A program made the position numbers and the translations under genes. Under the pieces are notes generated by a model. That model had not been told where the DNA came from. It worked only from the letters and a program-made list of their open reading frames with translations, and did not search any database. From NCBI RefSeq assembly GCF_964204645.1, contig NC_134026.1, forward strand, positions 4,363,950 through 4,427,949: a DNA stretch of 64,000 bases, read 5' to 3'. Each line of letters opens with the position of its first letter. Position 1 is the first letter of the stretch. Source of the DNA: Tubulanus polymorphus (taxonomy: Eukaryota > Animalia > Nemertea). Positions 7,679 to 8,674 of this stretch are shown piece after piece.

Positions 7679-8674
7679 ATATATATATATATAATATCGT
7701 AATACGATTCGATAAAAACTAGTTCGATATTCATCGATGATTTCTTTGAATTCAGGTACATTAAACGTCGTTCCCAGCAAGAAGGTTCGGGTTCTCATGC
7801 AGGTACAATCTTTCTTTATTTGTCACGGTTCTTTTATACGGTACATCATTGTAATAATTTGGCACTTAATGATATTCTCGATATATTATTGATTTTTCAA
7901 CAAATAGAATATATTCCAGAGAGTATCTAAGAAGTGGAGACGATCGGGATTATTTCAGGATCAGAGAGCTCTTTTAGTATAAATCCACGTAATATTCTTA
8001 TATCGAGTGTATTTTTTGATTGTTTAGCTAACAGCACGGCCCATCCCGGGGAAATTTACCTTCAGGTTTGTAAATATAAATACATCTTATTTTTTTGAAT
8101 ATTTAGATTTGTGAATCTTAACTACCTGTAGTTTTTTAATTATCTATAGCCTACACCTGCTGATCATGGTGACAGAATCTATTCTACGCAAGAGGATGTA
8201 TACGAAGACATAGATGACCACGATGACGTAGATATCGTAGATGTCGTCGATGTGGCAGATGTCACGAACGCTACAGTCCCAGAGGAAGACGTTGATATCA
8301 GGAACCCCACAGAAGATGACTACGTTAATACAAATATCAGAAAAGCTACCGAAGATACCTACGTAGTAGCAGATGTCATGAACCCCACGGAAGATGACTA
8401 CGTTAATACAAATATCAGAAAAGCTACCGAAGATACCTACATAGTAGCAGATGTCATGAACCCCACAGAAGATGACTACGTTAATACAAATATCAGAAAA
8501 GCTACCGAAGATACCTACGTAGTAGCAGATGTCATGAACCCCACAGAAGATGACTACGTTAATACAAATATCAGAAAAGCTACCGAAGATACCTACGTAG
8601 TAGCAGATGTCATGAACCCCACAGAAGATGACTACGTTAATATAAATATCACAAAAGCTAACTATAAAAGATAA
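3548..8674 (+). CDS. Receptor copy 1: SP-EGF-F-type lectin-EGF-3xFN3-RPTP-like juxtamembrane domain-TM-Tyr-repeat tail (~927 aa, 18 exons)
   Basis: Hand-built GT-AG exons: 3548-3611, 3908-4036, 4156-4398, 4483-4710, 4808-4942, 5017-5334, 5411-5472, 5591-5728, 6050-6119, 6213-6319, 6402-6600, 6698-6800, 6892-7138, 7275-7314, 7548-7638, 7756-7802, 8028-8065, 8150-8674. They sum to 2784 nt with consistent phases. Motifs: signal [24 protein letters not shown]-like [18 protein letters not shown]-lectin [35 protein letters not shown]3 [47 protein letters not shown] followed by RYIKRR. Confidence 0.88.
7640..7693. repeat. (TATC)n/(TA)n microsatellite at the start of the intron after the TM exon, copy 1
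   Basis: Seen directly; longer versions at 16847-17034 and 27648-27738. Confidence 0.95.

Follow-up and report, generated by a model that had tools for sequence, protein, structure and literature searches.

Three tandem genes in the nemertean Tubulanus polymorphus encode lectin receptors that were very probably assembled from two unrelated sources: an ectodomain and transmembrane (TM) helix of receptor tyrosine phosphatase type, and a cytoplasmic tail of the kind found on CUB-domain receptors of the same animal. The tail holds a ladder of nine tyrosines where the phosphatase has its catalytic domains. All three genes lie in the 64,000-nucleotide stretch analysed here (the window). We hold, with modest confidence, that the ladder receptors are activating partners of a lectin phosphatase that recognise foreign or non-self glycans.

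The tyrosine ladder and its DNA repeat

The last exon of copy 1 (8150..8674, + strand) is a 174-residue, phase-0 open reading frame that begins PTPADHG and ends NYKR, followed by the stop. It encodes the head of the tail, including a YEDI motif (8201..8212, +), and then the ladder. Nine alternating A and B units of 39 bp form a 78-bp higher-order repeat (8291..8641, +) coding for five EDDYVN and four EDTY(V/I)V motifs. The tyrosine codons start at 8321, 8360, 8399, 8438, 8477, 8516, 8555, 8594 and 8633, a distance of 13 residues in 8/8 spacings. Tandem Repeats Finder gave a 78-bp unit, 5.2 copies and 94% match, the two 39-bp halves sharing 24 of their 39 bases. Motif counts, 13-residue step and 78-bp unit are thus borne out as the earlier note had given them. 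Its EIYLQ and DVYEDI motifs upstream of the ladder are also both present, but EIYLQ sits in the preceding exon (8028-8065), outside 8150-8674. Two further tyrosines occur in RIYST and the terminal NYKR.

The last exon is used in the frame claimed for it: a GT..AG joint, 8065->8150, in sequencing run X4 links it in frame to the membrane-side exons. Since the exon is spliced in the + frame, a stand-alone or antisense reading of 8144-8674 was rejected. Across the six frames of the window, ED[DT]Y[VI] occurs 27 times, all within the three gene tails and nowhere else; since the ladder units did not arise independently of one another, counting them does not test against chance.

The ladder recurs at 17491-18015 (copy 2) and 28167-28691 (copy 3), and all three copies keep nine rungs in frame. 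A 4-base gain in the last repeat unit, present in 3/3 copies, created the present stop codon. Behind it, in the 3' UTR, lies a frameshifted remnant of a tenth rung (8675..8735, +), covered by a transcript contig and with 12 residues readable in another frame. Copy 3 has lost one tyrosine of the tail head.

Three tandem genes and their transcripts

Exons were modelled by hand from the sequence and then checked by script; all introns of the three models are GT-AG and there are no internal stops. Copy 1 (3548..8674, +; 18 exons, 927 residues) and copy 2 (12764..18015, +; 18 exons, 924 residues) are short forms. Copy 3 (22114..28691, +; 21 exons, 1220 residues) is a long form with six fibronectin type III (FN3) domains. 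RefSeq models of T. polymorphus match copies 1 and 3; that of copy 1, LOC141898815, extends further at the N-terminus but is otherwise the same in sequence.

The encoded proteins consist of a signal peptide, an EGF domain, an F-type lectin domain, a Cys-rich EGF-like module (a second such module, with no Pfam match), three or six FN3 domains, a PTPRU-like domain, a TM helix and a 203-residue tail. In copy 1, the lectin domain is encoded by two exons (4156..4710, +), with hypervariable N-terminal loops at about 4148-4267. The three FN3 domains of the short form (5017..6600, +) include, as the second, a hybrid left by the deletion of three domains, and the short-form joint is found in X4; fn3 matches in the ladder receptors are above the Pfam cut-off. 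The PTPRU-like membrane-proximal FN3 domain occupies two exons (6698..7138, +; PF23144, E 4e-4 for the whole protein, under the curated cut-off). It is followed by the TM exon (7548..7638, +), the juxtamembrane exon 16 (7756..7802, +) and exon 17 (8028..8065, +), a 13-residue reading behind a phase-1 acceptor that is the first exon of the CUB-receptor-type tail.

Evidence of expression comes from X4, one sample of bulk material whose type is not on record but which behaves as RNA. Among the best 15 of its 20 joints, 13 are GT..AG and match 13 of the 17 hand-modelled introns of copy 1, including 8065->8150; none of these joints was seen in any of the three remaining runs. A 379-base contig of X4 extends from exon 14 across the TM exon as far as 8331, and a second (8613-9108) covers the stop codon and 3' UTR with no letter differences. 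The last-exon variants in X4 are of copy-2 type, so a transcript of copy 1 itself is not separated. X4 also contains a phosphatase-type lectin contig beside the ladder transcripts; it has no contig with the phosphatase-type TM exon or with the exact lectin loops of copy 1, which is a gap in coverage only.

Several details of the cluster are worth recording. In RefSeq, copies 2 and 3 form a single locus, LOC141898814 (isoforms P0003 and P0004). Lectin exons of copy 2 are followed by FN3 exons of copy 3 in one isoform, and in two isoforms the signal peptide is lost through an early donor in exon 1. The mixed isoforms could be either a mis-annotation or true cross-copy splicing. The exon-6 donor that copy 3 retains (23865-23882) is lost in copies 1 and 2 (GT to GA; 5323-5340 in copy 1), where a new GTGAGT donor six bases downstream, used in X4 (joint 5334->5411), leaves the phase unchanged and looks like a compensatory splice rescue. 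The hybrid FN3 region of the short form (5413-6119 and its copy-2 equivalent) has an identity of only 61-68% with copy 3 and with the phosphatase alike, and may come from an older allele or another paralog. Contig depths in run X1 over 3480-9300 are about 14 for copy-1-specific sequence, 41 for the short form, 64-66 for the shared 3' end and 26 for the phosphatase TM exon. As a lead, since depth is no copy number, these would fit a haploid count of five ladder copies to two phosphatase copies, copy 1 being present on only one haplotype.

An ectodomain of receptor tyrosine phosphatase type

With the membrane-proximal part of copy 3 as query, five of 906 candidates matched, one of them P0058, a 1646-residue receptor tyrosine phosphatase with EGF, F-type lectin and FN3 domains and two PTP domains. 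Copy 3 is collinear with P0058 and identical to it at 908 of 1014 aligned residues (89.5%), from Met1 to the juxtamembrane RYIK.RS.Q. Beyond this point, P0058 continues into a first PTP domain with HCSAGAGR and WPD motifs and then a second, while the similarity of the ladder receptors stops in exon 16, which places the chimera junction between about 7780 and 8027. No PTP exon was found in the window (tblastn of P0058 matches nothing past its residue 973), nor was PF00102 found in the ladder receptors P0018 and P0019. A whole-ectodomain homologue search returned mostly FN3-rich PTPRQ, and Atlas gave, as a lead, a receptor tyrosine phosphatase cluster at 0.86.

P0058 exists apart from the window genes, because DNA contigs independent of the window carry its TM-exon and lectin variants, with the P0058 residue at 7/7 lectin codons tested. 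P0058 and the ladder cluster are each on a 31,900,244-base contig. The phosphatase has an acidic juxtamembrane tyrosine motif of its own, ESIYEEV (residues 1062-1068).

The order FN3-TM-PTP-PTP is the widespread state, from which we infer that the ladder replaced the phosphatase domains. A chimera of phosphatase ectodomain and TM helix with a CUB-type tail is well supported by these comparisons and those that follow. The earlier note had called the protein a lectin receptor; it is indeed lectin-bearing, but the phosphatase origin of the ectodomain had been missed, and the catalytic domains are absent here. The note's placement of a cytoplasmic tail directly on such a receptor holds, the tail standing behind the single TM helix. 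Two other sources of junction sequence were tried and rejected. In intron 16, the likeness that might mark an additional exon or a remnant of the phosphatase (QQIEYIPES against QQVHPAIPES) is not significant, as 87 of 1000 shuffles score equally high. The TM helix has a weak likeness to the CUB genes (11 of 5000 shuffles) and aligns better with the phosphatase.

A tail module common to CUB receptors

Searching with the last exon gave seven matches among 7991 candidates: two window genes and five CUB-domain receptors located on a different contig (16.7 Mb). A full HMMER scan, covering 1.84 billion representatives, brought in a sixth CUB receptor, P0025. The scan gave 28 matches, of which the five with the motifs are all from T. 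polymorphus; the remaining 23, generic repeats, have no ED[DTE]Y[VI]. Nemerteans are likely few in such collections, and the age of the tail is not datable from the scan. We regarded the Pfam matches of the tail (DUF2880, UPF0147 and LCAT), in which no more than one stretch passed, as noise from the repeat.

The relationship does not depend on the repeat. The non-repeat tail head, from exon 17 on, is identical at 31-34 of 52-53 residues (60-64%) between the lectin receptors and the six CUB receptors, with an alignment score of 142 against 69 for the best of 5000 shuffles. The ectodomains show no relation, whether CUB is compared with the lectin receptors (best E 2.5) or P0058 with the CUB receptor P0017 (best E 0.97). 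These CUB receptors (P0001/P0017, P0002, P0005-7 and P0025, "cubilin-like" by their automatic RefSeq names) share the tail head, the exon boundary and the 13-residue unit with the ladder receptors. They differ in having a CUB ectodomain, another contig, 11-32 units and almost no YxN. Their units are Pro-rich, 13 or 14 residues long, with the variants YVVA, YIVA, YVVP, YVGP and YVFA.

DNA contigs of another locus from runs X1 and X2 align with 8043-8085, which covers the end of exon 17 and the first 20 bases of the intron; upstream they enter an AG and then a CUB-type exon start, with the same acceptor phase as exon 17. As contigs of another locus share exon end, intron start and acceptor phase, the sequences point to acquisition of the tail by transfer of exons at the DNA level. 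No donor can be named, since the three tail types are roughly the same distance apart. The tail is repeat-built, as the description of it as minisatellite-built implied, but it was not born locally as a minisatellite; the module is common to the CUB receptors.

Two observations concern the CUB receptors themselves. In the tail of P0001/P0017 the tail head (ALQPIPT...) is repeated twice internally, so that larger blocks are duplicated besides the 13-residue units. In the ectodomains of P0002 and P0005-P0007, CUB domains stand in tandem, their frames conserved and their loops variable in stretches, which suggests a second variable receptor family with a ladder-type tail.

The lectin domain and its variable loops

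The copy-2 lectin domain matches FBP32 (3cqo) with an E value of 9.7e-7, and PF22633 is above cut-off in one of the three copies. The fucose-binding motif H-x26-R-x-D is present in copies 1 and 2, with Asn for His in copy 3; its spacing was taken as that of His52 and Arg79 of eel AAA, for which the review gives X24 in its text and 26 by its residue numbers (PMC5712786). The third basic residue of the motif is not found four positions past the Asp, where the loop is longer, and the next conserved basic residues come about 15 residues later. Because of this displacement, and because copy 3 is without the motif His, fucose binding by these domains is uncertain.

Variation among the copies is concentrated in the lectin loops. 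In the two bins covering 4148-4267, 30/60 and 31/60 columns are variable; of the other 15 bins, one has 11 variable columns and the remaining 14 have 0-6. Most segments are 95-100% identical among copies, whereas the N-terminal lectin loops fall to 39-53%; the introns flanking them are 96-100% identical, and the TM helix and stalk are 100% identical. The loops of copy 1 are closer to the phosphatase (36/44 identical) than to its sister copies (23/43 and 18/41), while its TM helix is identical to the sisters at 26/26 positions and to the phosphatase at only 16/26. Homogenisation between partners and retention of an old allele both fit this pattern.

In the loops, pN is 0.26-0.37 and pS 0.18-0.36. 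As pN is about equal to pS, positive selection is not established, and the raised pS would fit import or retention of old variants better than fresh point selection. By position, the variable loops would correspond to CDR1 and CDR2 of the eel lectin, the region described as its most variable (PMC5712786, in part). An X3 contig over 4088-4591 differs from copy 1 at 38 positions, and the combination is not that of any of copies 1-3 nor, in the rows listed, that of the phosphatase; it is possibly a further lectin variant.

Conservation in the tail and predicted SH2 sites

What the tails conserve is the tyrosine and its acidic surroundings. When 124 units of seven proteins were anchored on x-N-x-x-E, leaving the tyrosine out of the anchoring, Tyr stood at the rung in 120 (69/73 among distinct units) and Asp at position -2 in 119, while +3 was the most variable position. 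E-D-x-Y-[V/I] every 13-14 residues is conserved across the lectin- and CUB-receptor tails, and YEDI is present in 9/9 tails. A codon test on the 39-bp unit gave p 0.006 and is partly circular. The net charge of the window tail is about -30.

The YVN motif is distributed differently. Each window tail has five YxN, against one among the 155 tyrosines of the six CUB tails. Because the other 154 lack it, the Grb2-type YVN is, on the sequences compared, a local innovation of the lectin receptors, and Grb2 binding is not ancestral to the module.

Motifs for PLC-gamma and Crk, and processive phosphorylation as in p130Cas, belong to the background against which such repeated tyrosines are read. The c-Src SH2 rule is D/E at +1 and I at +3, and the Grb2 SH2 rule is N at +2 (PMC10065799, section 12). 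YEDI fits the first and is a predicted docking site for Src-family SH2 domains; the five YVN sites fit the second, in line with the earlier proposal of five pY-x-N Grb2-type sites in an acidic tail. ZAP-70 is described as preferring acidic sites (PMC5089863, in part). The EDTY(V/I)VA rung is without a clear reader.

The claim that the motifs are not canonical ITAMs or ITIMs also stood: no ITAM, ITIM, ITSM or NPxY matches were found in eight tails, nor any strict hemITAM or SHP2 C-SH2 pattern (the latter from section 12 of PMC10065799) in the three window tails. The patterns scored were YxxL/I-x6-12-YxxL/I, [ED][ED][ED]xYxxL and [SIVL]xYxx[IVL]; QEDVYEDI is a near miss to the hemITAM. Taken together, a role of the tail as an SH2 scaffold is likely.

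A proposed activating partner of a lectin phosphatase

A paired receptor is the most economical reading of this gene set because the ligand-binding ends are similar while one member would erase phosphotyrosine and the others would display it. In the origin we propose, a duplicate of the phosphatase gene would have taken up two exons of the tail at an intron of phase 1. Next would have come the 78-bp B/A repeat with its YVN, then triplication of the gene, and gene conversion would have kept the ectodomains alike while exchanging lectin loops.

In operation, a glycan surface would cluster the receptors. A Src-family kinase might then phosphorylate YEDI, dock there and write the nine-rung ladder on a disordered acidic tail. 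The five pYVN sites would bind Grb2/Drk multivalently, leading to Ras/ERK and actin output such as engulfment or encapsulation, and the pY(V/I)VA sites would bind other SH2 proteins. The phosphatase, with its nearly identical ectodomain, would erase the ladder phosphotyrosine and so set the threshold. More speculatively, tight contacts could separate the short copies 1 and 2, which lack three of the FN3 domains, from the longer phosphatase, in the manner of size-based phosphatase exclusion.

This would amount to a new build of paired receptor, which we put forward tentatively. The "off" member would be the lectin phosphatase and the "on" members its duplicates, with a CUB-receptor ladder, retuned for Grb2, in place of catalytic domains; the lectin loops would set specificity, and short ectodomains would escape the phosphatase. 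If true, the gene for an eraser gave rise to its own substrate, and grafting the ladder onto a phosphatase ectodomain would have inverted the sign of the receptor in one step. The tail itself acts as a swappable module of two exons that two unrelated receptor families have in common.

The wider question is how variable recognition domains are wired to signalling in invertebrates without ITAM/ITIM-rich repertoires or LAT; even ascidians are reported to lack LAT and SLP-76 (PMC12582321). A phosphatase/scaffold pair offers a testable model for the receptors of like build, some with phosphatase domains and some without them, that are candidates at the schistosome-resistance loci of snails. With its natural variants at +2 and +3, the regular 13-residue ladder is a system for testing valency and spacing in phosphotyrosine clustering.

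Comparison with known systems

We found no account of these genes, or of a receptor phosphatase ectodomain with a tyrosine-repeat tail, in literature covered in part and excluding supplements, where comparable motifs of snail tails might be found. A paper on immunity in Lineus ruber (PMC9835746) has no mentions of fucolectin, F-type, CUB or tyrosine.

The closest published architecture comes from snail schistosome-resistance loci, where EGF-fucolectin TM receptors with and without tandem PTP domains are clustered (PMC13712769, section 20; PMC12297450, in part). Biomphalaria SudRes1/LG5R resemble the ladder/phosphatase set in having a signal peptide, EGF, a galactose-binding/fucolectin domain and one TM helix, with the PTP pair present (1C) or absent (1B), and in their clustered, variable ectodomains. 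Unlike the ladder receptors, they have many EGF repeats, and their PTP-less forms are described as having mostly small tails without identified signatures (PMC13712769, section 20). The ladder receptors have two EGF-type domains, 3-6 FN3 domains and the long ladder, and are likened to them by architecture alone; no snail proteins were among the matches of our ectodomain searches, which were word-based and insensitive.

Vertebrate paired receptors (CEACAM1/CEACAM3, Siglec-5/14, KLRC/Ly49/PIR; excerpts of PMC5112662 and PMC3210942) likewise combine near-identical ectodomains and a shared ligand-binding part with differing signalling tails and tandem copies. Here, however, a catalytic receptor phosphatase takes the place of an ITIM receptor as the presumed inhibitory partner, the tail presumed to activate is a non-ITAM ladder of nine rungs from an unrelated receptor family, and the host is an invertebrate.

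Proteins of the LAT family have a very short ectodomain and palmitoylated juxtamembrane cysteines. The ladder receptors have neither: the ectodomain is about 674-970 residues with its own ligand-binding domain, no Cys is found near the TM helix, there is no Pfam or sequence match to LAT, and the repeats are exactly periodic. The earlier description of a LAT-like scaffold therefore fails as far as LAT-family membership is concerned. The tail does resemble LAT/LAB/LAX in its acidity and its several Grb2-type tyrosines (five, where LAT has a valence of up to three), suited to multivalent clustering (PMC3291652 and PMC5089863, in part).

Repeated tyrosine units are also known from the receptor tail of Monosiga RTKB2, where RM2 has been shown to be both disordered and phosphorylated, and to be recognised by a Src SH2 domain (PMC3584944, in part). 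Unlike the ladder receptors, RTKB2 has its own kinase and six larger repeats; no kinase and no homology were found here. Botryllus FcoR are invertebrate recognition receptors with tyrosine motifs, including an acidic hemITAM, EDDVYAIL, that resembles QEDVYEDI (PMC12582321, in part). They differ in being Ig-family proteins with few motifs per tail, an ITIM/hemITAM logic and an ectodomain not derived from a phosphatase. An amphioxus receptor has been described that links Grb2 to phagocytosis (PMC10199209, in part).

Alternative roles

The same biochemistry might serve gamete recognition, adhesion or development instead of immunity, which we consider unlikely. Receptor tyrosine phosphatases are classic adhesion and guidance receptors. 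The F-type lectin domains of oyster sperm bindins are reported to have diversified about their binding pocket (PMC5712786, in part). However, the nearest published architecture is that of the parasite-resistance loci described above, and the fast turnover of copies and loops fits immunity, although it would fit reproduction too.

A slightly fainter prospect is that the receptors are decoys or dominant negatives, the ectodomain soaking up ligand or pairing with the phosphatase and the tail being a hitch-hiking repeat of little signalling value. Such a role would suit the small, featureless tails reported for most snail relatives without PTP domains (section 20 of PMC13712769), the last rung trimmed by frameshift in all three copies and the head tyrosine lost from copy 3. 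It leaves unexplained why the rung tyrosines and YEDI are so well kept while adjacent positions vary, and why nine rungs remain in frame in every copy.

It is improbable that the ladder recruits SHP2/Corkscrew-type phosphatases or clathrin adaptors, so that both receptors dampen or clear. The tyrosines are followed by hydrophobic residues and YxxPhi sites occur, two in the window tail (YEDI and YVNI) and 2-12 per CUB tail, but position -2 is acidic and the three window tails have none of the ITIM, ITSM, NPxY or SHP2 C-SH2 patterns.

For the structure of the tail, the predictions called for by the earlier note conflict. Charge-hydropathy places 7/7 tails on the disordered side, whereas AF2, run on the single sequence, models the ladder as a confident beta-solenoid with two strands per 26 residues (pLDDT 79-87 over residues 71-170, mean 66.9), a known class of artefact, such folds being reported for perfect repeats (PMC11795689, in part). 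That the ladder folds or polymerises as a solenoid or amyloid-like scaffold presenting stacked tyrosines is a minor possibility: the best VIA match of the model is curli CsgA (Z 12.6, rmsd 8.6, 104 aligned residues, 9% identity), but Foldseek finds nothing at E<=0.001 (best TM 0.22 or less), the charge of the tail and the Pro-rich CUB units of varying length speak against such stacking, and the homologous, imperfect P0025 tail reaches a pLDDT of only 37-47, a weak control since its CUB domains also failed to fold.

Elsewhere in the window

Two further features lie downstream of the receptor cluster. An intronless open reading frame of 522 residues on the minus strand (39525-41093) reads, by its motifs, like what we take to be a biogenic-amine (serotonin-type) GPCR. 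The region 42016-45205 contains local duplications of 556 bp (99.6%) and 415 bp (96%).
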